Shown here piece by piece: positions 10,228 through 27,181 of a stretch of DNA of 64,000 nt; position 1 is the first letter of the stretch, and every line of letters starts with the position of its first letter. This DNA is from Candidatus Freyarchaeum deiterrae (lineage in GTDB: Archaea > Asgardarchaeota > Jordiarchaeia > Jordiarchaeales > Jordiarchaeaceae): the NCBI GenBank assembly GCA_037305845.1, contig CP147778.1:2816001-2880000 (forward strand), written 5' to 3'. The position numbers and the translations under genes are program-made. The notes under the pieces were generated by a model, which saw only the letters and a list, made by a program, of their open reading frames with translations, was not told the DNA's origin and did no database searches.

Positions 10228-10983
10228 TTAACTCATTTGACGTGATCCGTAGAATACTAAAGCGGACATTATCAAGCCTACGAATAGGATGATGAATGCT
10301 AACCATGGTGCTAGTACTCCCATGAATAGGAAGATTCCCGCGATTATGGATAGTACTCCTGTCGCTACGCTTAGTCCCGGGCTGTCTAGTCCTTCTCTCA
10401 GATTGACGAATGTGGCTCCGAAAATGATTAGTGTGCTTCCGACTGCTATGAGACCGAGCCATAAGAACACACCGTTAACGGCGGGTACGCCGCCCATAAC
10501 GACTAGGAACGCAAGCGTCCAAATAGGGGTTAGACCGATGATGTCGCTAAAATGTGTGATTAAGTATATTGAGGTAAGGTTATGCGTAGTGCCGCCAGTC
10601 GCCGCCCCAGCAAGCAATAGTATTAGGGCTAGTATGGCTCCTATTACTCCGAATACTAGGCTGACGGTGCCCATAGATTTTCCTTCTATTTTTCCCAGTC
10701 CGTAGAGTCCTACACCCATAAGAATTAGAGTAAGAACCAACAGTAACGCTAGAATAAAGGTTACAAACATGAAGCTGCTTAATGCACTACTTAAAGCCAA
10801 GTTCTGGAAGAGGCCTACAACTATGGTGTAATCATAGAGAATGAAAAAGAGATTTTGTATGGCCATCGCTTGTTGGTACATTGAACTGAAAGTGTAGTAT
10901 TGTATAATCCAAAATATTCCTATTACGGTCGCTACTATGCCGAGCACTGAGCCGATAATTCCCGCTGTAACTGATTTACTCAT
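10228..10983 (-). CDS. Hypothetical multi-pass membrane protein (tandem paralog A)
   Basis: 6-7 hydrophobic segments. Near-identical blocks shared with 11238..11990. Confidence 0.8.
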   Translation of the reverse strand: MSKSVTAGIIGSVLGIVATVIGIFWIIQYYTFSSMYQQAMAIQNLFFILYDYTIVVGLFQNLALSSALSSFMFVTFILALLLVLTLILMGVGLYGLGKIEGKSMGTVSLVFGVIGAILALILLLAGAATGGTTHNLTSIYLITHFSDIIGLTPIWTLAFLVVMGGVPAVNGVFLWLGLIAVGSTLIIFGATFVNLREGLDSPGLSVATGVLSIIAGIFLFMGVLAPWLAFIILFVGLIMSALVFYGSRQMS

Positions 10984-11237: not shown

Positions 11238-11990
11238 TTAATCCATTTCACGTGATCCGTAGAATACTAGGGCTGCCATTATGAAGGCAACGAACAGGAT
11301 GAATGCAGCTAGCCATGGAAGCAATATTATCCCAAACAAGAAGATTCCCGAGATTATAAATAGTACTCCTGTAGCCGTGCTTAGTCCCGGGCTTTCCAAT
11401 CCTTCTCTCACACTGATGAACGTTGCACCGAATATAATGATAGTAACACCGACTACTATGAAACCTAACCATAACCAGATTGAACTGACGTTAGCCACTC
11501 CACCTAAGAGGACAAGTATGTAAATAGGATACGTTGTAATCAACGGGAGATCGTAAATGAATGTCAGCAGTGAGATAAGTGTTGGCGTGTTGGGACCAGT
11601 TGCCCCCATCAGCAAAAGTAGTATAGCTAGGATGGCTCCTATTACACCGAATACTAGGCTGACGGTGCCCATAGATTTTCCTTCGACTTTACCGAGTCCG
11701 TAGAGTCCTACGCCAGTCAAAATTAAAGTTAAAACTAGAAGAACACCAAGGATAAATGTTAAACCAGCTAAATTACTTTGCAAGTCACTCACATGGATGT
11801 TCATGAAGAAACTTATCTGAACTACACGATCAAGTAAGCTTGGTTGAATGATTGGAAGATTTTGAATACCAACCGCGGCGTCATGATTTGCAACGAAGTC
11901 CACGTACCTTATACCCCACAGAATTCCAACAATAGCTGCCACTATGCCTGAAACAGCGCCGAAAATACCGGTAACAATAGATTTACTCAT
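11238..11990 (-). CDS. Hypothetical multi-pass membrane protein (tandem paralog B)
   Basis: Shares GVGLYGLGKxEGKSMGTVSLVFGVIGAILA, REGLxSPGLS and ALVFYGSR with paralog A. Confidence 0.8.
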   Translation of the reverse strand: MSKSIVTGIFGAVSGIVAAIVGILWGIRYVDFVANHDAAVGIQNLPIIQPSLLDRVVQISFFMNIHVSDLQSNLAGLTFILGVLLVLTLILTGVGLYGLGKVEGKSMGTVSLVFGVIGAILAILLLLMGATGPNTPTLISLLTFIYDLPLITTYPIYILVLLGGVANVSSIWLWLGFIVVGVTIIIFGATFISVREGLESPGLSTATGVLFIISGIFLFGIILLPWLAAFILFVAFIMAALVFYGSREMD

Positions 11991-12249: not shown

Positions 12250-12615
12250 TCATTTTGAGTGATTATGATTCTTCGATGGGTAAAGTACATGTCTTGTGTA
12301 CGCGACTCCTAGGGGCGTTAAGTCTACGTCGCTTCCTTGCACTGTAATATAAAAAGAGTCTTGCAGTAGTTGGAGATGAAACTTTATAGTTTTTTCGTCC
12401 ATACTCATTTTTTTGGATATATCTTTTATTTTTAGAGGTCTGTCTTTGAGAAGCGTCATAATCTCTCGCCTGGTTGGGTTTTGCATGGTGTGAAGTTCTC
12501 TTCTGTGTTCCTCAGTCTGATTTCCCAACAGTTCCTTGTTTACTTCCTTTTCTCTCCAAGCGTCGATTTCCTCATCACTCATTCTTCTATAATCTATCTT
12601 AGGCAACACTCTCAC
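12250..12615 (-). CDS. ArsR-like winged-helix protein (paralog A)
   Basis: MQNPTRREIMTLL...KTIKFHLQLL...LTPLG. Confidence 0.75.
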   Translation of the reverse strand: MRVLPKIDYRRMSDEEIDAWREKEVNKELLGNQTEEHRRELHTMQNPTRREIMTLLKDRPLKIKDISKKMSMDEKTIKFHLQLLQDSFYITVQGSDVDLTPLGVAYTRHVLYPSKNHNHSK

Positions 12616-12885: not shown

Positions 12886-13254
12886 TTATTTTAACACATT
12901 TCTTGTGTACGCTACTCCCGGAGGTGTCAAGTCTACCTCATTTCCTTCTATTTTAATAAAGAAGGATCGTTCTAGGACTTGTAGATGGAACCTTAATGTT
13001 TTTTCTTCTAGTTTCAATTCACCTGCTATCTCTTCTATTGTTAGAGCCTTATCTTTGAGAAGTGTCATAATCTCTCGTCTGACTGGGCTTTGCATGACGT
13101 GTAGCGACCTTCTGGCTTCAGTTGGGTTTCCTACCAGCCCTGCATCTGCTACTTTTTTCCTCCAGGCTTCAAGTTCTTCGTTACTCATTTCTCTACAATT
13201 TTTCTTCTTCAAACCTCTCACCTTTTCTTCAGCTATCCGAGATGGATGTACCAT
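12886..13254 (-). CDS. ArsR-like winged-helix protein (paralog B)
   Basis: MQSPVRREIMTLL...KTLRFHLQVL...LTPPG. Confidence 0.75.
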   Translation of the reverse strand: MVHPSRIAEEKVRGLKKKNCREMSNEELEAWRKKVADAGLVGNPTEARRSLHVMQSPVRREIMTLLKDKALTIEEIAGELKLEEKTLRFHLQVLERSFFIKIEGNEVDLTPPGVAYTRNVLK

Positions 13255-13581: not shown

Positions 13582-13848
13582 TTATTCTTCGAAAACCCTT
13601 GTTTTTATTCTATTAAATTCTTTTACCGTGATTGCTCCAGCTTCTAAGGCTTCTAAGGCTACCGTGATTTCTTCCAATACTATGCGTGCTTTTTGGCAAA
13701 CCTCACTGGGGGTGTCTTGATCCCTTTCTATTTTTTCGTATTCTTCCCAGCACTGTTCTAGGCACTTGTGTATATCGTTGGATTTGCCGCTCTCCTCTTC
13801 TAAGAGGGAGGCCAACTCCCTTAAGTTATTCATAGCCGCTTTTGACAA
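13582..13848 (-). CDS. Small helical protein with C-terminal SHOCT-like motif
   Basis: GAGGGTGG upstream of the TTG start. C-terminus LEAGAITVKEFNRIKTRV. Confidence 0.6.
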   Translation of the reverse strand: MSKAAMNNLRELASLLEEESGKSNDIHKCLEQCWEEYEKIERDQDTPSEVCQKARIVLEEITVALEALEAGAITVKEFNRIKTRVFEE

Positions 13849-14298
13849 TATCTTCCACCCTCACGGAAGTTTATTCATTACCTTAAAATGTAATCCACGC
13901 ACTTATATCCCTTATGCATCTAATTTATTTAGCTCTCCTTATATTTTTTTAGATTTTTATCAATAGTTTCTAGGTTTTCCTAACATTTCAATCTTTATAG
14001 AACACATATTACTATTAAGTATGTAGAATATCATGATATTAGCGCCATATATATCTAAACAGATATAACAGTGTTACTTAATACAAAAAGCTATTTCTAC
14101 CACCCACATTGTTTCAAAATAACTAGTTCACCCTAAAAAGATTATACACCTGTAAAATATATGTGCCAAATTTAGTACTGGTTTCACAGTCCAGAACCCA
14201 AAAAGAAAAAGACAGAATGGATTAAATCAAATAGGTAACGCAAAGTATTTCTCTGATTAGTTATCGAAATAGAAAAAGGGAAATATCCCTTAACCTCC

Positions 14299-15843
14299 CT
14301 ATTTGAAGAGTTCCTTCCTCGCTCTTCTCGACTGTTTAGCGTTTCCCACAGTAGCTTCATCTTCTGAAGTCCCCTTTCTTGACCTTAATTCATTGAGTTC
14401 ACCTGCTAAAGCCTTATTGACACTTGCTGCTTTCGGCGCTGCCATGGGGGCTCCTGCAATTTGTTGTTGATATCCTGAGATTATTTCTTCGGCTTTGTCT
14501 TGTTTGCCTTGATAGGCTGCTCTTCCTGCTTGCTGTACTCTCATTGCTCCCGAGATTTCTGGTTCATATGTTTTTACGTACTCCTTTTCGTCTTTAGCCC
14601 TTTGGACTTTTTTTGAAACTACTCGTAGGTGCTTCTTTCCTTCGGCGTCTGTGTACTGGATTTGTGCCTGGATTGAAACTTCTTCATCTTTTATTTCCTT
14701 GGCTGATTCCATTTCGAAGTAAATCTCTCTGTCAGATGTTACTCCTCCCAGTCGAATAGGTTCTTCTGGTTTCAAGGTTTCGGACGCTGTTCCTGTCGCA
14801 TCCACAAGTTTTAAGGCAGGTGGAGTAAACATTTGCACTTCTACGTTTCGAGCTATGTATCCCTTACCTCGAATGTCGGCGAATGTTTTCTCAATTTCCT
14901 CCATAGTTACGTAGTAGATGTCTCCTCCGGTTTCCAGAGCGAGGTTTCCCAGAGTCTTTAAAGCTAATTGACTCTCTGTTGACTGCTCACGTACACCGAC
15001 CACATCAACTATTATGTTACTGAGATTGCAGCTTCCCGCAGCTTCTTTGTAGAAGTTTTTACCCGTGGCACTCGCGCCTTCGAGGGTTCCGAACCCTGTG
15101 TTGGCCAGTCCGTCGGTGAGCAGGAGTAAGCGTCCTCCGCTTCTCATCTTGAGAAGAGTGTATCCTCCGAGGAGTCCCGGTCCTAGGGATGTCATATCCA
15201 TGGGCTGAAGTTTAGATACGGTTTCTATCCATTTTTTCGCAGTTTTTTCAACAGGCTCAAAATCGTACTTCGCTTGGCTGAACTTTTCTGCGGCTTTTTC
15301 CTGAGAATAAAGATCATCACCGGTCACTGTTAGAGCGTTTGTACCTCTATAGTCGATTAGATAAACGCTGGATTCAAAGGCGATTAAACCGAACTTGCTC
15401 TGAGGCGCATTGACCTTAAGGTCCTTTATGGTTTCAGCCAAGCTATGCTTGACCGCCTCAAGTTTTCCTCCGGACATTGAGCCTGAAACATCTATTACTG
15501 CAACAATGTTGTCCCCTGTCAATGCTGGCTTTGTTGTCTTAATCTCCATGGCTTCTTCTATTATGAAGTCGACGTCATCGATTAGGTGAGCTGGTAAATC
15601 CTTGGGATCAACCACGTTTATTGCGCCGCAAAAAGCGCATTTAAAATGCGTTCCTATTTTGGGGTCTTTTTTAACACTGCTGGGGTCCGTTAAGACTCCG
15701 CCGCACTTTTGGCATTGGATAGGCTTTCCCACAATAACCTCTTTAGGCTTTTCCAAGTCTTCAAAAGACAGGGAGGCTACGTAAGGTAAATCTTCTTTGG
15801 TAGCTTTTCTCTCCAAAATCTTGTTAAAAGATGTTTTAAACAT
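14299..15843 (-). CDS. Sec23/Sec24-like protein: Zn finger + vWA domain + beta-sandwich
   Basis: PIQCQKCGGVL...FKCAFCGAIN, then VAVIDVSGSM, MTSLGPGL, LLLTDG, LALETGG, and a beta-rich QAQIQYTDAEGKKHLRV segment. Confidence 0.75.
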   Translation of the reverse strand: MFKTSFNKILERKATKEDLPYVASLSFEDLEKPKEVIVGKPIQCQKCGGVLTDPSSVKKDPKIGTHFKCAFCGAINVVDPKDLPAHLIDDVDFIIEEAMEIKTTKPALTGDNIVAVIDVSGSMSGGKLEAVKHSLAETIKDLKVNAPQSKFGLIAFESSVYLIDYRGTNALTVTGDDLYSQEKAAEKFSQAKYDFEPVEKTAKKWIETVSKLQPMDMTSLGPGLLGGYTLLKMRSGGRLLLLTDGLANTGFGTLEGASATGKNFYKEAAGSCNLSNIIVDVVGVREQSTESQLALKTLGNLALETGGDIYYVTMEEIEKTFADIRGKGYIARNVEVQMFTPPALKLVDATGTASETLKPEEPIRLGGVTSDREIYFEMESAKEIKDEEVSIQAQIQYTDAEGKKHLRVVSKKVQRAKDEKEYVKTYEPEISGAMRVQQAGRAAYQGKQDKAEEIISGYQQQIAGAPMAAPKAASVNKALAGELNELRSRKGTSEDEATVGNAKQSRRARKELFK

Positions 15844-16040
15844 TCCACAATTCTCCAGCTATTCCGATTAAACATTTAACATAGTGTTAGAAATATAAAA
15901 AATTGAAACTAGGTAGTTAACTAATCAACTTACGAATAAAAATGTGTTATGGAATCGAAGGAATATTTTTATGCGATAGAATAATAAACCATTCCATTTT
16001 TATATTGTGTAAGAATTTTGAAACTAAGGAGGTTAAAATA

Positions 16041-16559
16041 TTGCCAATTATCGAATACTTGGGTAAGGCTCCAAAGATTCACTCGACAGCTTATGTCAGC
16101 CCTAATGCCTTTGTTTCGGGTGCCGTTGAAGTAGGTGAGCGGGGTTCAATTTTTGATTACGCAGTGGTTAGAGGCGACTTCTCAGCTATTAAAATTGGCA
16201 AGAACTCTAATGTTCAGGACTGCTGCTCGGTTCACGCGGCTACAACTGAGTGCGTCATAGGCGACAATGTGACAGTGGGACATGGAGCTGTTATTCATGG
16301 TGCAAAAATTGGTAATATGATAATAGTGGGAATAAACTCAACAGTACTTGATGGGGCTGAGATAGGCGATAACTGCATCATTGGCGCAGGAGCCGTTGTC
16401 ACCCCGAGTACCAAAATTCCCCCAAACAGTTTAGTTGTTGGCAACCCGGGAAAGGTCGCAAGAGAAATCAGCGAAACCCACCTCGCCACAATAAAATTCA
16501 GTGCTGAGAGTTACTCACAACTGGCGCAAAACTACAAAAAGATTTTTAAAAAACCCTAA
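16041..16559 (+). CDS. Gamma carbonic anhydrase family protein (YrdA/CaiE-like)
   Basis: Hexapeptide repeats, VRGD, NVQD, and His ligands in VH..GH..IHG. Start moved from 15942 to the TTG at 16041, which follows AAGGAGG. Confidence 0.88.
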   Translation: MPIIEYLGKAPKIHSTAYVSPNAFVSGAVEVGERGSIFDYAVVRGDFSAIKIGKNSNVQDCCSVHAATTECVIGDNVTVGHGAVIHGAKIGNMIIVGINSTVLDGAEIGDNCIIGAGAVVTPSTKIPPNSLVVGNPGKVAREISETHLATIKFSAESYSQLAQNYKKIFKKP

Positions 16560-16577
16560 TCCTAACTCCTTTTATTT

Positions 16578-17204
16578 TTAGGGTCTTTTTACAACATCGA
16601 ATAGTTTGTCCAAATCTTTGGTTATCTTTTCTTTTTTCTCGTTTAACGTCTTCGTTATCATCTGGTATTCATTTTCAGTGATTCTCTTTTCTTCCCTAGC
16701 AACCTCAACTTCTGCCATTCTGCTGAAGAGTCTTTCGAGTTCTCGCTCCAGATCGTGCAGTGAAACTTTAGGTCTTTGACCCATTAGGTCCCAATAACTT
16801 GCGCGAGAGATTTTCCCTTCTTCCTTTAACTCAGGCTTTTTAACTGGTTCAGGTTCTTTCTCCAACATGTATTCCCGTTCTTCCGCTTCCGGCTTAACGC
16901 TGGCTTGCTCTTCTTTCACCATAAGGGTCTCACCAGCGGAGACGAAAATCAGTTCCTGAATCAGGTTGACCGCGGTTTCTAAAAGGGTTTCAACATTTCG
17001 AACCCGCTCGTCTAATCTGTCTATTTTCTGTACTAGGGAATCGAAGCCGTTGTCTATTTTTTTCTTCTCAGTGATCTTATCAAGCATTCTATCAAGGAGT
17101 GATTTCATTCTCTCTATCTCTTCCCTTCCAACCAAAGCCGCTCCCTCCACAATGTCGTATGGGCTCTCAACTTGTTTCATTTTTAAAGGCTCCCTTCTTA
17201 CCAA
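16578..17204 (-). CDS. Coiled-coil hypothetical protein with C-terminal helical-hairpin motif
   Basis: Heptad-rich segments. C-terminal LFSRMAEVEVAREEKRITENEYQMITKTL. Confidence 0.7.
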   Translation of the reverse strand: MVRREPLKMKQVESPYDIVEGAALVGREEIERMKSLLDRMLDKITEKKKIDNGFDSLVQKIDRLDERVRNVETLLETAVNLIQELIFVSAGETLMVKEEQASVKPEAEEREYMLEKEPEPVKKPELKEEGKISRASYWDLMGQRPKVSLHDLERELERLFSRMAEVEVAREEKRITENEYQMITKTLNEKKEKITKDLDKLFDVVKRP

Positions 17205-17476
17205 TTAATCGTATTATTTTATAAACATATTACTTATTTCAAACTACCACAAATCTATTTGTAATACCCATGTAATACCTTATCTTAAGTATTCTCCGCT
17301 ATTTCGCCCAAGAAATGTTGTAATGTATTTTTTAAATAAGTATTTAAATTTTATTATTTACTCGCTTTGTTAAGAGATTCGAGAACTAGTAACCCTTCAG
17401 TTAAAGGAAAAAAATATGAAGTTAAAAAGAAAGAAACTTCTTTTCCCATAGTAAAAAGAAAAAAATTGATATGAGA

Positions 17477-17908
17477 TTATAAGTAGAATACGCCACCAAG
17501 TTGGAAATAATAGAACAATATGGCTCCAATTGCGGCAACTATGATAAAAATGGCCAGTGTTGTTATCATCACAAGTCGGGCTCTTCGTATAAGCTGTAGG
17601 GGTGCTTTTGGTCTAAGCAAGAATATCGTTATAAGAGTGACACCTAGGCCTACCGTTACGAGCCCAACTATGGCATGTACTATTATGAATAAGTTCTCAT
17701 TGGGGTAGGAAAAAGAACTAAGATATGTAAGGGCGCTAGGAGCCATCCAAAGGATTATGATGGCTACTTGTGTAGCGATCACCGAATAAACTATTCCGTG
17801 GTGCAGCCTTAGGTTTAGTCTTCTTGCTCCGAAACGCCAACCAATAATAAGTGCCGCTACTAAAGCTATTTCAACTGGTAGCACGATTATAGCTTGTAAA
17901 GCAGGCAT
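17477..17908 (-). CDS. 4-TM membrane protein with His residues (DUF420/cytochrome b-like)
   Basis: Four hydrophobic helices, LHHG and IVHAIVG. Starts 7 nt after the stop of the upstream gene. Confidence 0.65.
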   Translation of the reverse strand: MPALQAIIVLPVEIALVAALIIGWRFGARRLNLRLHHGIVYSVIATQVAIIILWMAPSALTYLSSFSYPNENLFIIVHAIVGLVTVGLGVTLITIFLLRPKAPLQLIRRARLVMITTLAIFIIVAAIGAILFYYFQLGGVFYL

Positions 17909-17915
17909 GTTCTTT

Positions 17916-18689
17916 TCACTTCCTCTTCTTTTTCTTCTCTACTTTGGCACTAATATCGCTGATGCTTCCCCTAGTAGTGAACATACAGGAATCAATTGAA
18001 GTTTCCCTATTCTCATGACTAGTCAGAATTGCTGATCCTATCATTCCCCAGGGGCAAAACCTGGTATTGGCTTTTAGGTAAGCATCTGAATCATGAATCT
18101 TTGCGAAGGCGCAACCATTTGCAACAACTTTGACCTTGTTATCTTCAGTCACTGTAGCTCGGGCGTATTTTACAAATTTCTTTTCCTGAATGTATTTGGT
18201 GTACGCGTCGAGTTTATCTTTCAGTGGAACTTTTTCTCCTATAAATGCCGCCGGGAGGTAAGCCGAGAGGATGTCAGCTAATCGTTTGAACACATAATTC
18301 TTAATTGCAGTGTCACCCAGGATGTTTATGAAAACACTTTCGTAGCCAAAAATTGCAGCTCTAAGTTCCCAAATTTCCTCCATTGTGAAAGCCTGTGCCG
18401 CCCGTTCTTCACTAGTTCGTTCTACCTTTTTTTTGAGTCGCGACATGAAAGATTTAAGCTCGGAAATCAATTTATCAGAGTCCCCTTTCTCGGAGAAGAT
18501 TTCTGGAAGAAACTCTCGGACATAATAAACCATTCTCGGTAATACGTGCTCCTCCAGAACGTTTGGGCCAATCAGTTCAATTCCAACCGCTTCATAGGCT
18601 TCTAAAATACCGTTGTAAAGGAACACCGCTTCCAATTCTTCTTTATTAGTCTTGGATTCATCCATTTCGTTCCCTTGCATAATATACAC
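17916..18689 (-). CDS. V4R/MetOD1-like domain protein with duplicated N-terminal helical half
   Basis: VKVVANGCAF...FCPWG...DSC C-terminal pattern and an internal repeat. Confidence 0.6.
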   Translation of the reverse strand: MYIMQGNEMDESKTNKEELEAVFLYNGILEAYEAVGIELIGPNVLEEHVLPRMVYYVREFLPEIFSEKGDSDKLISELKSFMSRLKKKVERTSEERAAQAFTMEEIWELRAAIFGYESVFINILGDTAIKNYVFKRLADILSAYLPAAFIGEKVPLKDKLDAYTKYIQEKKFVKYARATVTEDNKVKVVANGCAFAKIHDSDAYLKANTRFCPWGMIGSAILTSHENRETSIDSCMFTTRGSISDISAKVEKKKKRK

Positions 18690-18761
18690 TTCCCTTCCTT
18701 TTGTGGCAGTTACTAATCATTAAAAAATATAACATAAAAATATTTCTACTTAACTAGATAG

Positions 18762-19802
18762 TTAAGAGTACCGAAATAGCGAAACTGCAAAGTCCTCGCT
18801 TGAATTCTTCCGGTGAAGTGAGAGCCGTTTCGTACCACCATCGATAATGAATACGTTCAACTCATCGAACGCCCGGTGATTAATCAGCTTGGAGAAACCA
18901 TTGATATTATTTATCAAAGTTGAGAGAATGATTCCACTGAGCTGAGGAAGCGGCTCACCTTCCTCATGGATGATGCTCCCATTTTTTGGGAGAGTTGATC
19001 TGTTCAGGGTGAATGTATTTTTGTGGGATAAGCTAACTAAAGAGTCTAAGGAAGCGTAGTAACACATGTTAATTGCAGCATCTAGAACCTCCTGTTCAGG
19101 AGTCTGCGGTGCACCAGTTGCCAAACTGAGGATTTTTCCACTCCAAACAGAAGCGACCGCATATTCTTGTGAACGGATGGTGAAATAAGAATACGAATCT
19201 GAGAGTCCTAGTTTCGAGAGAGCTTGTTGCAGCGTCGTGAATAAGAGTAAAAATTCCTTAATCTGCTCTTCTCTGAACAAAGGTTTTGGACGGGCAAAAT
19301 GGGTGATTTCCTTTCTCTCCTCTGAATCTACTAGAAAGGCAAGCGGTATGTTTGTTCTCTTCTGAAGCATTTCCTTGATGTAAGATGCCTGTCCTTCTAC
19401 ACTAAAAAGTTGAGATACTAGCACCGAAATCTCCTTTTTTAACTTCTCCTTCTCCGGAGTGTTTAATACCGGAAACTCTTCTTTGGAAACCAGAGTTTGC
19501 TCAACAAGGTCGTGAATCTTCTTTAGAGCATCTCTAGCAAGGCGCTCTGGCACTTTTCTATCGAAGATACTCACAACCACTTTGTCCTCGTCGCAACACT
19601 TCATAAAAAGAAAGTACTCCCTTTCCGTCGAGAAGGAATCAATAACATCCGAACGAGTAGTCTCACTGAAATCCTTGATTGCACTTAGAAGACCTGAAGA
19701 AAGAATAATAGATGAATCACTATCCTTCATCTTTTTATCACTAGAATAATAGAAGAAGGGAATACCATTGCCAATAACAAAAACCTCTTTGAGCATTTCC
19801 AT
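18762..19802 (-). CDS. Longin-domain protein, putatively with three longin/roadblock-like units
   Basis: N-terminal VFVIGNGIPFFYY...ILSSGLLSAIKDFS...IDSF matches the Asgard longin pattern. Start moved from 19853 to the ATG at 19802. Confidence 0.7.
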   Translation of the reverse strand: MEMLKEVFVIGNGIPFFYYSSDKKMKDSDSSIILSSGLLSAIKDFSETTRSDVIDSFSTEREYFLFMKCCDEDKVVVSIFDRKVPERLARDALKKIHDLVEQTLVSKEEFPVLNTPEKEKLKKEISVLVSQLFSVEGQASYIKEMLQKRTNIPLAFLVDSEERKEITHFARPKPLFREEQIKEFLLLFTTLQQALSKLGLSDSYSYFTIRSQEYAVASVWSGKILSLATGAPQTPEQEVLDAAINMCYYASLDSLVSLSHKNTFTLNRSTLPKNGSIIHEEGEPLPQLSGIILSTLINNINGFSKLINHRAFDELNVFIIDGGTKRLSLHRKNSSEDFAVSLFRYS

Positions 19803-22121: not shown

Positions 22122-24683
22122 ATGAAGAAAGAAAAAATTCCGATTCAGGGAATGCATTGTGCGACCTGCGCCGGAACTATAGAGAAATCACTATACGAAC
22201 TACAGGGTATTTCAAAAGCTGATGTTAGTTACGGTTCCGAGAGCGCGATTGTCACTTATGATGAAAACAAGGTTAATTTAAGCTCCATACACAATCAGAT
22301 AACCAAGGCTGGTTACGACGTTAAAAAGGAGAAAGTAAGACTGAAAATCGTTGGAATGCATTGTGCGACCTGTGTACAGACCGTTGAAAAAGCTCTACTG
22401 AGTGTGGAGGGTGTACTATCCGCCGAAGTTAGCTTAGGTGCCGAGAGTGCAATTGTTACCTACACTTCCCCTGCAACAATTGCTGATATGAAAAAAGCGG
22501 TTAAAGAAGCGGGTTACAAGGTAATAGACGAGTATTCAGAAAAAGAGGCTGCAAAGGTTCTCACAAGGCAGAAACGGATTTTCGCTTTTACAGTACTCCT
22601 CACAATTCCCATAGTTATTGGAAGTTTTGCTAGCGTACTTCCATTCCCGGTTCCCGCTATCATGCAGAATCCAATATTCCTGTTTCTACTCGCAACACCT
22701 GTTCAATTTATTGGAGGTTACCAATACTATAGAGGCTCTTATTATTCTCTCAGGAATAAGGTAGCGAATATGGATGTCTTAATAGCCATGGGTACGTCCG
22801 TGGCTTATTTCTACAGCGTATTTGCCACTTTCATAATTCCCGGTCAATTATACTATGATACCGGAGCCATGATCCTGTCGTTCATTTCTTTGGGAAAGCT
22901 CCTAGAAGCAATCGCTAAAGGCAGAACGAGTGAAGCGGTTAAGAAGTTAGTGCAGCTACAGGCCAAAACCGCTGTTGTTATCAGAGATGGGGAAGAGGTG
23001 GAAATTCCCATAGACGAAGTTGCTGTGAAAGATATCCTTGTAGTAAAACCCGGTGAAAAAATTCCTGTAGATGGAACCGTGAAAGAAGGGCACTCGACCG
23101 TCGATGAATCTATGATAACCGGAGAACCAATACCTGCTGAGAAGAATGTAGGAGACCAAGTTATAGGTTCAACCATAAATAAAAACGGTTACCTGCACGT
23201 AGAGGCGCAGAAGGTTGGCAAAGACACTATGCTTTCACAAATAATTCGAATGGTGGAGGAGGCTCAAGGCTCAAAGGCACCCATACAAAGTTTAGCTGAT
23301 AAGGTAGCTTCAATTTTCGTACCCTCAGTTATTCTTCTAGCATTTGGAGCCTTCCTATACTGGTTAATTATTGGGCAAAAAGATCCTCTGTTCTCGATGC
23401 TTATTCTGGTCGCGGTTCTCGTTATTTCATGTCCCTGCGCTCTAGGGTTAGCTACCCCAACCGCCATAATGGTGGGTACGGGTAAGGGAGCGGAAGCCGG
23501 TATACTCATTAAAGGCGGAGAATCCCTAGAGAAAGCCTACAAAATTAACACCGTGGTTCTCGACAAGACCGGAACCATAACTAAGGGTGAGCCAGAAGTA
23601 ACCGATGTAGTGGGCGATGTGCTAGAAATTGCAGCGGCGGTGGAAAAAGATTCCGAGCATCCACTGGCCGAAGCAATAATAAGAAAAGCCAAGGAAGAAA
23701 AAATCAAAATTCCAAACGTGAAAGCCTTCTACGAATATCCCGGTAAGGGAGTGAAGGCGGAGCTTAACGGAATGGAAATACTCGTAGGAAACAGAAAACT
23801 GGTCAAAGAGGAAAAACTGAAAAATAGCTTTGAAAAGGAGTCACGAAAACTCGAGGAGATGGGAAAAACAGTACTATTCGTAGCAGAAGACCGAGAAGTA
23901 AGGGGACTAATCGCCATAGCCGACACTCTAATGGAACACTCCATGGAAGCAATCCAGGAACTGAAAAACATGAACCTGGACGTGGTTATGATAACTGGTG
24001 ATAATCAGAAAACCGCTCAGGCAATAGCCAGCCAGGTCGGCATAGACCGAGTATTATCCGAAGTTCTGCCCGAGGACAAGGCAAGCGAAGTGAAAAAAAT
24101 CCAAGAGGAAGGAAGAATCGTAGCCATGGTGGGCGATGGAATAAACGACGCACCAGCCCTCGCACAGGCAGACGTAGGGATAGCCATAGGCTCGGGAACC
24201 GATGTGGCAATCGAAACCGGCGACATAGTTCTCATAAAACACGACCTGAGAGACATCGCAACATCCATAAGGCTGAGCAAAAAATCAGTAAACAAGATAA
24301 AGCAGAACCTGTTCTGGGCATTCATATACAACATTATAGCCATCCCTATAGCGGCTGGAATACTCTACCCCATACTATTACCTCCCGCCCTAGCAGCGGC
24401 GGCGATGGCAATGAGCTCAGTAACCGTTGTATCCAACTCACTCTTACTCAAAAGATTCAACCCCCAAAAGAGAAAAATAAAAATAAAAAAAGAAAAAGGA
24501 GGAGAAAAAATGGCAAAAGCTAAAGCTACCAAAGCTACCAAAGCTACAGACCCAGTGTGCAAGATGGAAGTAGATCCAAAAACAGCCAAATTAAAGAGCG
24601 ATTACAAAGGAAAAACTTACTATTTCTGTGCTCCCGGCTGCAAGAAATCATTTGACGAGAATCCCCAAAAATTTGTAAAGTAA
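22122..24683 (+). CDS. copA: Cu(I)-translocating P1B-1 ATPase with two HMA domains and a C-terminal YHS/TRASH domain
   Basis: GMHCATC twice, [30 protein letters not shown], and C-terminal [14 protein letters not shown]. Confidence 0.95.
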
Positions 24684-24827
24684 AGTAAGAAACAAAATAA
24701 AAATTCCAATTTCTACCTTTACTTCTTTTTTTATTTTTTTGGATAAATACTTCTAGAATAATAATTATCTAAGTGCTGATTTGTTTTTCAAAACTTTATG
24801 TTGAGATGCAAGAAATAATTTCTAAAC

Positions 24828-24846
24828 AAGCTATATCAGATAGCTT
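24828..24846. promoter_or_regulatory. Inverted repeat upstream of copB (candidate operator)
   Basis: AAGCTAT-N5-ATAGCTT. Confidence 0.3.
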
Positions 24847-24997
24847 AAAATTAAAACTTACTACATATCTATATTGTCCGTGATAAACATGGTGGGGATA
24901 CATGAACATTTTAAGTAAATTGCACCTCGCTTCCTCAAAAGATTTCCAAAATTCATAAAGGAGGGGTAAAACGAAACATAAACAACAAGACCACCAA

Positions 24998-27181
24998 ATG
25001 CATAATCAGATGCAACATAAAGAGCATCAAAATCACGCTCATCACATAGAAGAGTTCAGAAGGAGACTATGGGTTTCTCTCATACTAACAATACCCGTTT
25101 TACTTCTTTCAGCGACTATCCAGTCGTGGTTTGGTTTCAAAATAAACATCCCATACCAGAATGTGGTTTTGCTCCTTCTGTCTTCCGTTATTTACTTTTA
25201 CGGCGGATGGCCCTTCATAAAAGGCATGGTGCAGGAAATAGGAGACCGACATCCCGGAATGATGACCCTTATAAGTACAGCAATATCCGTGGCCTTTTTC
25301 TACTCCGCCGGGACGGTATTCTTCATAAGCGGAGAGGGCTTCTTCTGGGAACTTGCTACCCTAATTGATGTAATGCTTCTCGGACACTGGATAGAAGCAA
25401 AAAGTGTCCTCGGTGCTTCGAGAGCACTAGAAGAACTAGTTAGAATAATGCCCACAACAGCCCACCTAGTGAAAAACAGTAATATCGTAGATGTACCAGT
25501 CTCCCGGTTAAAGGCCGGTGATATCGTTCTGGTTCGTCCAGGCGAGAAAGTACCTTCTGATGGCTTGGTAGTTGATGGGGAATCCTTTCTCAACGAAGCC
25601 CTTCTGACAGGGGAATCCAAACCAGCCCATAAAAAAATAGAGGACAAAGTTATAGGCGGCTCCATAAACACGGAAGGCGGTCTGAGGGTTAGAATAGAGA
25701 GGACAGGGGAAGAAACCTATCTGTCACAGGTAATAAAACTTGTGAGAGAAGCTCAGGAAAGCAGGTCCAGAACTCAGGATCTGGCAAACAGAGCAGCGGC
25801 TCTTCTTTTTTACGTTGCAATAAGTGTTGGAGCAACAACCTTCCTAGTATGGTACCTCCTCGGAACTCCTGACTTCGCCCTTGAGAGATCCGTCACCGTT
25901 CTGGTCATAGCCTGTCCCCACGCCCTAGGCCTGGCTATACCTCTCGTTGTCGCTTTATCCACCTCAATAACTGCGAAGAGTGGAATCCTCATAAGAGATA
26001 GGAGAGCCTTTGAAGAGGCTAGGGATATAAATGCTGTTGTGTTTGACAAGACCGGCACACTAACGGAGGGCAAGTTTGGTGTAAGCGACATGGTTTCCTT
26101 CGTCTCAGAAGACGAACTCTTAAATCTGACCGCGAGTGTAGAACTCGACTCGGAGCATATAATAGCAAAGGCTATCGTGGAATACGCCAAGGAAAAAGGT
26201 ATACAAACTCCTCAGGTGCAGGAATTCAGAGCGATACCCGGTAAGGGTGCCTACGGAAGGGTTGAGGGCAGAGAAGTTTATGTGGGAAGCCCAAACCTCT
26301 TGGAAGAGATGAACATAGAGATAAAGGACAAGAAGATAAAAAAACTAATGGAGCAGGGAAAAACGGTCGTTTTTACAGTGGTTGATGGAAAACTCGCCGG
26401 TGCCTTCGCGCTCTCCGATAGGATAAGGAAAGAATCCTACGAAGCGGTTAAAAAACTAAAGGAATTAGGGGTAAAGGTTTACATGCTCACAGGTGATTCC
26501 GAAGAAGTCGCTCGATGGGTTGCAAAGGAACTCGGTATAGACGACTACTTTGCCCAGGTTCTACCTCATCAAAAGTCAGAAAAAGTCGAACTCTTGAAGA
26601 ATCAAGGCTATAGGGTTGCTATGGTTGGCGACGGTATAAACGACGCCCCAGCCCTAGTTACAGCCGATGTTGGAATCGCCATAGGTGCTGGAACAGATGT
26701 AGCTATTGAAAGCGCAGACATAATTCTTGTGAAAAATGACCCGAGGGATGTTACAAAAGTTGTTGATATTTCAAAGAAATCATACTCAAAGATGTACCAG
26801 AATCTGTGGTGGGCGGCGGGTTATAACATATTCGCCATACCCTTAGCAGCAGGCATCCTATACAATTACGGCATACTTATAATTCCTGCTCTCGGGGCTC
26901 TGTTCATGTCCGCAAGCACCATCATAGTCGCCTTAAACAGCCAAACTCTGAGGAAATATGAACCAAAAGGAGTAGAATTTTTAGAGAAGAAGCAAATAAC
27001 CACAGATCCAGTTTGCGGGATGAAGGTAGAACCAGAAGAGGCTGCGGGTAAGGCTGAGTATAAGGGGTACGTTTTCTACTTCTGTTCAGAAGAACATGAA
27101 AAGGAATTCAAGAAAAATCCTGAAAAATACTTCTCCAAGGCGAAGAAGAAACAGGAGGAACATAAGCCCCATCATCACTAA
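24998..27181 (+). CDS. copB: P1B-3 (CopB-type) copper ATPase with His-rich N-terminus and C-terminal YHS domain
   Basis: His-rich N-terminus, PGMMTL, CPH motif, DKTGT, GYN, MSAST and DPVCGM..FCSEEH. Confidence 0.92.
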   Translation: MHNQMQHKEHQNHAHHIEEFRRRLWVSLILTIPVLLLSATIQSWFGFKINIPYQNVVLLLLSSVIYFYGGWPFIKGMVQEIGDRHPGMMTLISTAISVAFFYSAGTVFFISGEGFFWELATLIDVMLLGHWIEAKSVLGASRALEELVRIMPTTAHLVKNSNIVDVPVSRLKAGDIVLVRPGEKVPSDGLVVDGESFLNEALLTGESKPAHKKIEDKVIGGSINTEGGLRVRIERTGEETYLSQVIKLVREAQESRSRTQDLANRAAALLFYVAISVGATTFLVWYLLGTPDFALERSVTVLVIACPHALGLAIPLVVALSTSITAKSGILIRDRRAFEEARDINAVVFDKTGTLTEGKFGVSDMVSFVSEDELLNLTASVELDSEHIIAKAIVEYAKEKGIQTPQVQEFRAIPGKGAYGRVEGREVYVGSPNLLEEMNIEIKDKKIKKLMEQGKTVVFTVVDGKLAGAFALSDRIRKESYEAVKKLKELGVKVYMLTGDSEEVARWVAKELGIDDYFAQVLPHQKSEKVELLKNQGYRVAMVGDGINDAPALVTADVGIAIGAGTDVAIESADIILVKNDPRDVTKVVDISKKSYSKMYQNLWWAAGYNIFAIPLAAGILYNYGILIIPALGALFMSASTIIVALNSQTLRKYEPKGVEFLEKKQITTDPVCGMKVEPEEAAGKAEYKGYVFYFCSEEHEKEFKKNPEKYFSKAKKKQEEHKPHHH

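Follow-up and report, generated by a model that had tools for sequence, protein, structure and literature searches.

A cluster of minus-strand genes in the genome of the Asgard archaeon Candidatus Freyarchaeum deiterrae contains a three-gene cassette that is very probably a functional unit in its own right: a longin-roadblock-lamtor protein of 346 aa (18762..19802), a V4R/H-NOX/Bet3-superfamily protein of 254 aa (17916..18680) and a four-transmembrane (4-TM), DUF420/CtaM-like protein of 143 aa (17477..17908), lying in that order on the minus strand. Positions are those of the window, i.e., the whole 64,000-nucleotide stretch that was analysed (contig positions 2816001–2880000 of a closed, single-contig genome of 3,576,204 bases). 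The trio may be a membrane redox or metal sensor that feeds a longin/roadblock small-GTPase platform, and to this full chain we assign a probability of about 0.4. A sequence-only reading of the window had joined the trio to three further minus-strand genes, the six being interrupted by one plus-strand hexapeptide gene, as a candidate coat/tether/guanine nucleotide exchange factor (GEF) module that included a Sec23/24-like protein. All seven open reading frames are present where that reading placed them; the cluster holds two unrelated things, the cassette and a genus-level block, and very probably the six genes are not one unit.

The unity of the trio is seen in its gene order. Profiles of four genes were searched against 331 Asgard genomes (the relatives discussed here are all Asgard archaea), and the long V4R-like protein was found in 41 genomes from four families. 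In 40 of the 41 its direct upstream neighbour is the longin gene (a contig-end fragment in two, and in one set off by an inserted gene), and in 38 its direct downstream neighbour is the 4-TM gene, all exceptions to the longin/V4R/4-TM adjacency being assembly breaks, and the genes that flank the cassette vary among lineages. The link between longin and V4R genes drawn by the earlier reading is real on the evidence of gene order. These two are also the tighter pair, because some Thorarchaeia keep the 4-TM gene after losing both: at five Thorarchaeia loci (L074–L077, L082) it sits in cassette-type flanks from which the longin and V4R genes are both absent, i.e., the two were lost together.

The Sec23/24-like gene (514 aa, 14299..15843, minus strand) stands outside this unit. 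It is present in 124 of the 331 genomes, 92 of which have no cassette, and it adjoins the cassette in none of the other 40 carriers; 31 of these have it elsewhere and nine gave no match. In 27 of the 31 it is on another contig (separate contigs might adjoin in a closed genome), and in the other four it shares a contig with the cassette, at distances of about 189 kb, 204 kb, 255 kb and 1.18 Mb. No Sec23-like gene was found within up to 8 kb either side of 21 cassette loci, nor any cassette gene in 29 Sec23-like loci. The Sec23-like gene is present in all five congeners and the cassette in none of them; three keep the block of Sec23-like, gamma-carbonic-anhydrase-like and hairpin genes intact, and two show the empty site, where 498 and 896 nt separate the coiled-coil gene from the hexapeptide gene that follows, versus 3181 nt here. 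The cassette is at this site only in this genome. The V4R core of the window is placed with rows labelled Hodarchaeales and Heimdall (97/99) and apart from the short form found in its own order, a grouping that would fit a gain of the cassette here. Marks of a mobile element were sought at the cassette ends and are not counted: a single AT-rich inverted repeat of 17 nt (15/17), which overlaps a stop codon and a T-tract, was matched by 3 of 40 shuffles. At one other locus (L177:6405-9742) a Cas12f1-like TnpB-domain gene and a resolvase gene come after the cassette, a hint at mobility; the longin protein of that locus (P0136, 60%) is among the closest to that of the window.

The proposal that the six genes form an archaeal COPII/TRAPP-like coat-tether-GEF module, with the V4R protein binding the Sec23-like protein, is accordingly very improbable. 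Three of the folds do resemble trafficking components and the genes are co-oriented within 6.2 kb, but the sequence-only reading had itself named unlinked genes in related genomes as its refutation, and for any Sec23-containing module unlinked they are; what is conserved of the six-gene clustering is the longin, V4R and 4-TM genes, not all six together. The cluster also looks tighter in the window than in its relatives because four genes that congeners have between the Sec23-like and 88-aa genes are missing here. The empty site in congeners, the near genus-specificity of the hairpin proteins and the identity of the V4R protein (see below) speak against the module as well, as does the published Asgard Sec23-like family, which is without the gelsolin domain and the Sar1-binding surface and for which nucleotide-dependent binding to an Asgard Arf was not seen (PMC11914678).

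The longin protein was modelled with AlphaFold2 (AF2; pLDDT 87.5) as a canonical longin domain (aa 3–132), a roadblock domain (135–246) and a truncated, lamtor-type domain (263–345), which is without its last helix and is judged lamtor-type on element order only; the earlier call of a multi-longin protein is borne out. This is the order (LD1 longin, LD2 roadblock, LD3 lamtor-type, by AF2 and, for domains 1–2, VIA) found in the tri-longin-domain (TLD) RabGEF subunits of Mon1-Ccz1, Fuzzy-Inturned and HPS1-HPS4, for which domain order and an alphaX-betaX linker joining LD1 to LD2 have been defined (PMC8833172). In Foldseek, TLD subunits fill the top 21 ranks, with colinear matches to Mon1-Ccz1, Fuzzy-Inturned and BLOC-3 at E 6e-9 to 5e-5; the TM-score is only ~0.25 and the root-mean-square deviation (rmsd) ~20 Å; TLD domains pack in a triangle, and the inter-domain packing of the monomer model is uncertain. 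The linker is absent from the model, where helix 116–132 runs straight to helix 135–147. TLD RabGEFs are heterodimers of paralogous tri-longin chains, and a profile search of the closed genome returned weak single-domain longins only and no second tri-domain paralogue. Searches of PDB sequences, of Pfam and of 1.84 billion representatives gave no sequence link to eukaryotic TLD subunits (a result compatible with remote homology), and Fuz_longin matches (E 0.02–0.08) occur in 1–2 of 43 family members. The protein, although modelled with the build of a TLD subunit, thus cannot be filed as one; it also comes with V4R and membrane partners, which TLD GEFs lack. Its build may also be due to convergent assembly from the abundant Asgard longin and roadblock domains.

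Domain 1 of the longin protein matches a TRAPP longin subunit best (Z 12.4, tied with other longins), domain 2 matches MglB of the MglA-MglB roadblock switch and Asgard roadblocks (Z 9–10), and domains 2–3, taken together, have a tandem roadblock protein as a match, with 196 aligned and, by that row, TM 0.58. In the majority of cases that have been studied, longin and roadblock domains serve as platforms for GTPases (PMC10933270). Unlike the MglA-MglB switch, the cassette is without a GTPase gene. The gene for a distant tri-domain homologue without a V4R partner has a Rab-like GTPase gene as its immediate downstream neighbour (L098:5001-6706); another such homologue was seen 2.4 kb from two small GTPase genes (L102:1600-6263).

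The AF2 model of the V4R protein (pLDDT 87.8) has a V4R/H-NOX/Bet3-superfamily domain after a duplicated N-terminal helical segment, the internal repeat being detected by hhalign at 92.7%. In VIA, H-NOX, YslB, a yeast TRAPP subunit, BcsD, Thor-TRAPPC3 and DmpR are tied at Z 5.5–7.1, so the two-layer V4R/Bet3 fold that the earlier reading had named is recognizable at superfamily level, but there is no match to Pfam V4R or TRAPP. The top, though tied, match is to the heme domains of H-NOX and soluble guanylate cyclase (Z 7.1, rmsd 4.8, 165 aligned). H-NOX domains carry a proximal His, conserved in the helix that precedes the first strand, and a YxSxR heme motif; the invariant residues of the V4R family include no His in the corresponding helix of the model (153–166) and no YxSxR, and H-NOX was set aside. 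What the family does keep is a two-cysteine motif, N188-x-C190 and C209-P210, with the Cys pair retained in 119 of 120 long forms and in 154 of 157 copies of a Lokiarchaeia fusion protein (see below); it is the sole feature that survives across all forms. Among the families closest to it in structure are RdxA_C and ATC-hydrolase-type proteins. Literature searches on rdxA/rubredoxin/archaea and on SufR/V4R/4Fe-4S found no match.

The V4R protein shares with the TRAPP core and Thor-TRAPPC3 (PDB 7YH2; PMC10933270) the pairing of a longin with a V4R/Bet3-superfamily protein, and reaches Z 5.7 to 7YH2. A Bet3/TRAPPC3 (PF04051) orthologue it is not: it has no PF04051 match, hhalign gives 0.6% to Thor TRAPP, and cassette-bearing Thorarchaeia have distinct PF04051 genes at other places in their genomes. 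Asgard TRAPPC3 has a four-Cys zinc site; of the positions at which Thor TRAPP proteins have a Cys, the V4R protein keeps two, and it has the extra N-terminal helical repeat. The analogy of Bet3 binding Sec23, from which the coat module had been argued, is inapplicable because the V4R protein is not such an orthologue. This genome has, about 360 kb away, tandem genes for TRAPP/V4R-like proteins of 183/184 aa (contig 3195114-3196004; L172:1315-2565) that are better Bet3-like candidates, one having a PF04051 match at E 1e-5, below the cut-off.

These likenesses make the trio readable as a constitutive proto-TRAPP or proto-Mon1-Ccz1 GTPase regulator, in which the V4R protein would be a Bet3-like pseudo-dimer with a lipid or hydrophobic ligand and the 4-TM protein a plain membrane anchor, with redox or metal input absent. 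TRAPP pairs longin and V4R-fold subunits, a Heimdall longin-TRAPPC3 fusion has been published (PMC10933270), the helical repeat within the V4R protein might imitate a dimer of the Bet3 type, and the TLD-type domain order, the Foldseek ranking, the TRAPP-like domain 1 and the weak complex prediction described next all lean the same way. We nevertheless consider this reading unlikely, given the low global TM-score, the missing linker, the lack of a tri-domain paralogue and of a sequence link to eukaryotic TLDs, and the position of the real TRAPP-domain genes elsewhere; a plain anchor, too, leaves the invariant His/Met residues and the Cys pair unexplained.

The contact between longin and V4R proteins was approached by complex prediction, as the earlier reading had proposed. 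An ipSAE of 0.52 was obtained (runs 0.52, 0.59 and 0.08), versus 0.00 for the best control. The mark applied to this score is reached by 58 of 80 solved pairs and by 2 of 110 mismatched pairs, and at ipSAE 0.60 or under by 7 of the 80 solved pairs and both mismatches. The runs agree in at least 0% of contacts, with partner pLDDT at least 70, and the prediction is weak support for a contact; it shifts the odds little, because gene order had already made the pairing likely. A direct longin–V4R contact is, all told, somewhat favoured.

The third protein of the cassette has four hydrophobic helices by hydropathy, confirming the earlier call, and H36, H37, M55, H78 and M114 are conserved in its alignment. 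PF04238 (DUF420) is matched by 3 of 20 relatives (best E 4.3e-5), the window protein itself having no Pfam match, and DUF420 occurs in 17–27% of the members of its Atlas clusters. Heme-copper oxidase assembly requires the DUF420 member CtaM, which may also move copper (PMC13344008). The 4-TM protein shares with this family the four helices, the His/Met pattern and the weak Pfam matches of its relatives, but in the loci read its gene has no heme-copper oxidase genes nearby and is coupled to longin and V4R genes; left uninterpreted by the earlier reading, it is an integral part of the real, three-gene unit. In Thorarchaeia (L080, L081) genes resembling a [NiFe]-hydrogenase operon have a second, remoter DUF420-like gene immediately downstream.

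A possible input to the cassette is suggested by one Lokiarchaeia family, which has a membrane fusion protein with a C-terminal domain homologous to the V4R core (hhalign 96.9%, E ~1e-10). In the membrane domain of this fusion H47 and H89 are invariant (157/157), and their spacing of 42 residues recurs in the 4-TM protein. A longin gene is found 64–188 nt upstream at 35 of 41 loci, and at 24 of the 41, in seven of eight genera, the fusion adjoins a gene for the beta subunit of ferredoxin:thioredoxin reductase (FTR-beta) with glutaredoxin; FTR-beta is single-copy in five of the genomes with the fusion. CCG Fe-S genes lie nearby at 21 of the 41 loci and a small-GTPase gene at 20. In two further families there is a short two-gene form, made up of a longin-domain protein of 253–272 aa and a short V4R protein.

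From these elements the following mechanism can be proposed. The 4-TM protein would bind heme or copper via His/Met residues at both membrane faces and would anchor or feed the V4R-fold protein, whose two conserved cysteines may be a thiol/disulfide or a metal/Fe-S switch. The V4R-fold protein would in turn dock on the longin protein, a step that is weakly predicted and genetically well supported, and the longin/roadblock platform, going by what is known of the family, may act as a GEF or a GTPase-activating protein (GAP) for a small GTPase encoded elsewhere in the genome. As noted earlier, no small GTPase is encoded in the window; the genome has 16 open reading frames with small-GTPase motifs, every one outside it. 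A small-GTPase output we hold to be slightly better than an even bet, and a redox or metal input slightly worse than one.

Several observations weigh against this sensor-to-GTPase chain. The redox neighbourhood comes from one family of kindred genomes and possibly from one ancestral juxtaposition; its genes lie on the opposite strand from the fusion and are lost at 17 of the 41 loci. FTR-beta was not found in four Thor/Hod genomes with the split cassette, and in this genome it lies about 1.2 Mb from the cassette, so FTR as an obligatory partner is unsupported. The redox link is, for these reasons, a lead and not proof. Homology between the Lokiarchaeia membrane domain and the 4-TM protein went undetected (hhalign 0.2%; the His spacing alone is the same), the Lokiarchaeia longin matches that of the window in domain 1 only, with no homology detected for domains 2–3, and the DUF420 assignment is weak. 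The split cassette, moreover, has no GTPase gene, and the 4-TM gene, which survives alone in some Thorarchaeia, can act without longin and V4R; in some distant cassettes (L089, L096, L103) it is inverted and convergent with the V4R gene. One of these inverted copies has lost the His pair.

Part of the same evidence can be read as a cofactor-handling or redox-enzyme unit (copper or heme trafficking, thiol chemistry) in which the longin protein is a scaffold and no GTPase takes part. The role of DUF420/CtaM in oxidase assembly and copper handling, the thiol-redox island around the Lokiarchaeia form, the split cassette without a GTPase and the RdxA_C and ATC-hydrolase-type structural neighbours are in line with this. 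Yet across all four architectures no partner is as constant as the longin gene, which was lost together with V4R, not with the 4-TM gene; the usual role of longin and roadblock domains as GTPase platforms, the GTPase genes near 20 of 41 Lokiarchaeia loci and the one beside a distant homologue also argue for an output of that kind. A GTPase-free unit appears, on balance, a shade less probable than the constitutive regulator considered above, and the gated GTPase regulator is preferred to both.

The genus-level block comprises the coiled-coil, gamma-carbonic-anhydrase-like, Sec23/24-like and 88-aa genes, the Sec23/24-like gene being its only notable member. The earlier Zn-finger-vWA-beta-sandwich call for its product holds, with matches in Pfam to Sec23_trunk, at 34.6 bits, and to Sec23_BS, at 34.2 bits, that exceed the cut-offs; zf-Sec23 is weak (E 0.03), with CxxC at 44 and 69. 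The metal ion-dependent adhesion site (MIDAS) is intact, D118/S120/S122/T218/D244 being invariant in 11 sequences. Of the features of eukaryotic Sec23/Sec24, the Zn finger, trunk and beta-sandwich are present and the C-terminal gelsolin-like domain with the GAP residue is not: Pfam gave no gelsolin match, and the chain stops about 100 aa past the beta-sandwich. It shares the Zn finger, vWA trunk, beta-sandwich and helical region, and the lack of a gelsolin domain, with the Asgard Sec23/24-like family (PMC11914678) and with ArnB-type vWA proteins, which have the same core build (PMC12852372). The protein belongs to that already published Asgard family, to which it adds only the intact MIDAS and its lineage-specific gene neighbours. 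In Thorarchaeia the Sec23-like gene is surrounded by clustered roadblock genes and a gene for an MglA-like GTPase, and at three Lokiarchaeia and two other loci small GTPase genes are 1–4 genes away (L025, L026, L151, L153, L155, L156, L161, L168); the MglA-like homologue of this genome is at contig 1970410-1971003, far from the window.

The other members of the block lie outside the cassette as well. The coiled-coil protein (16578..17204, minus strand; 199 aa from ATG 17177, open reading frame 208 aa) is genus-restricted, being found in three of five congeners and in none of 55 other genomes searched, and its gene is an old neighbour of the Sec23-like gene within the genus. The hexapeptide-repeat gamma-carbonic-anhydrase-like gene (15942..16559, plus strand; Pfam Hexapep) is, by synteny, a genus-level neighbour too. 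The 88-aa helical protein (13582..13848, minus strand) belongs to a five-member, nearly genus-restricted family, and its gene sits 5 kb from the Sec23-like gene in congeners. There (L018, L020, L021) four extra genes, by eye an enoyl-CoA hydratase-like gene, a TPP enzyme and two others, lie in the interval that corresponds to 13849–14298 here, from which they are gone. Among the fold calls of the sequence-only reading, those for Sec23/24-like, longin and (at superfamily level) V4R stood, but that of two SHOCT-like hairpins fell: the 88-aa protein reaches E 0.88 for SHOCT (PF09851) and 0.13 for SHOCT_2 (PF20612), far below the cut-offs, the coiled-coil protein has no SHOCT match in Pfam, and the two have no detectable relationship to each other.

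Elsewhere in the window, two copper-type P1B ATPase genes open a metal-resistance region (22122–27181) 2.3 kb off the cassette; they invite a link through the tie of CtaM to copper, yet one congener without the cassette has such an ATPase there. Tandem winged-helix paralogues lie at 12250–12615 and 12886–13254 (four close copies in the genome), and a winged-helix look-alike follows a membrane-anchored V4R and longin pair at locus L143. Tandem multi-TM paralogues at 10228–10983 and 11238–11990 belong to a family of about nine members in the genome, and the one that was scanned had no NCBIfam match. Rfam gave no match, and a promoter scan with a sigma-70 model, which is unsuited to archaea, stayed at chance level.

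The Sec23-like family and the Asgard longin and V4R folds are already in print; no description was found in the literature of the cassette or of an archaeal tri-longin-type protein. A Sec23-like gene beside trafficking-like folds in one genome is no evidence for a proto-COPII machine. Asgard longin, roadblock, V4R and small-GTPase genes are many, but they seldom lie in operons, which makes their partners hard to assign (PMC10933270); the cassette offers a fixed pair of small, soluble longin and V4R proteins with a membrane partner, amenable to expression and testing. That the trio is a redox- or metal-gated small-GTPase regulator in several Asgard classes and that its longin protein also shares ancestry with Mon1-Ccz1-type Rab activators is, taken jointly, a long shot; if true, the forerunner of a trafficking GEF would first have coupled the redox state of a membrane to a GTPase switch. 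The Lokiarchaeia fusion suggests a concrete input, thiol redox or metal, for the role that such proteins may have had before organelles.

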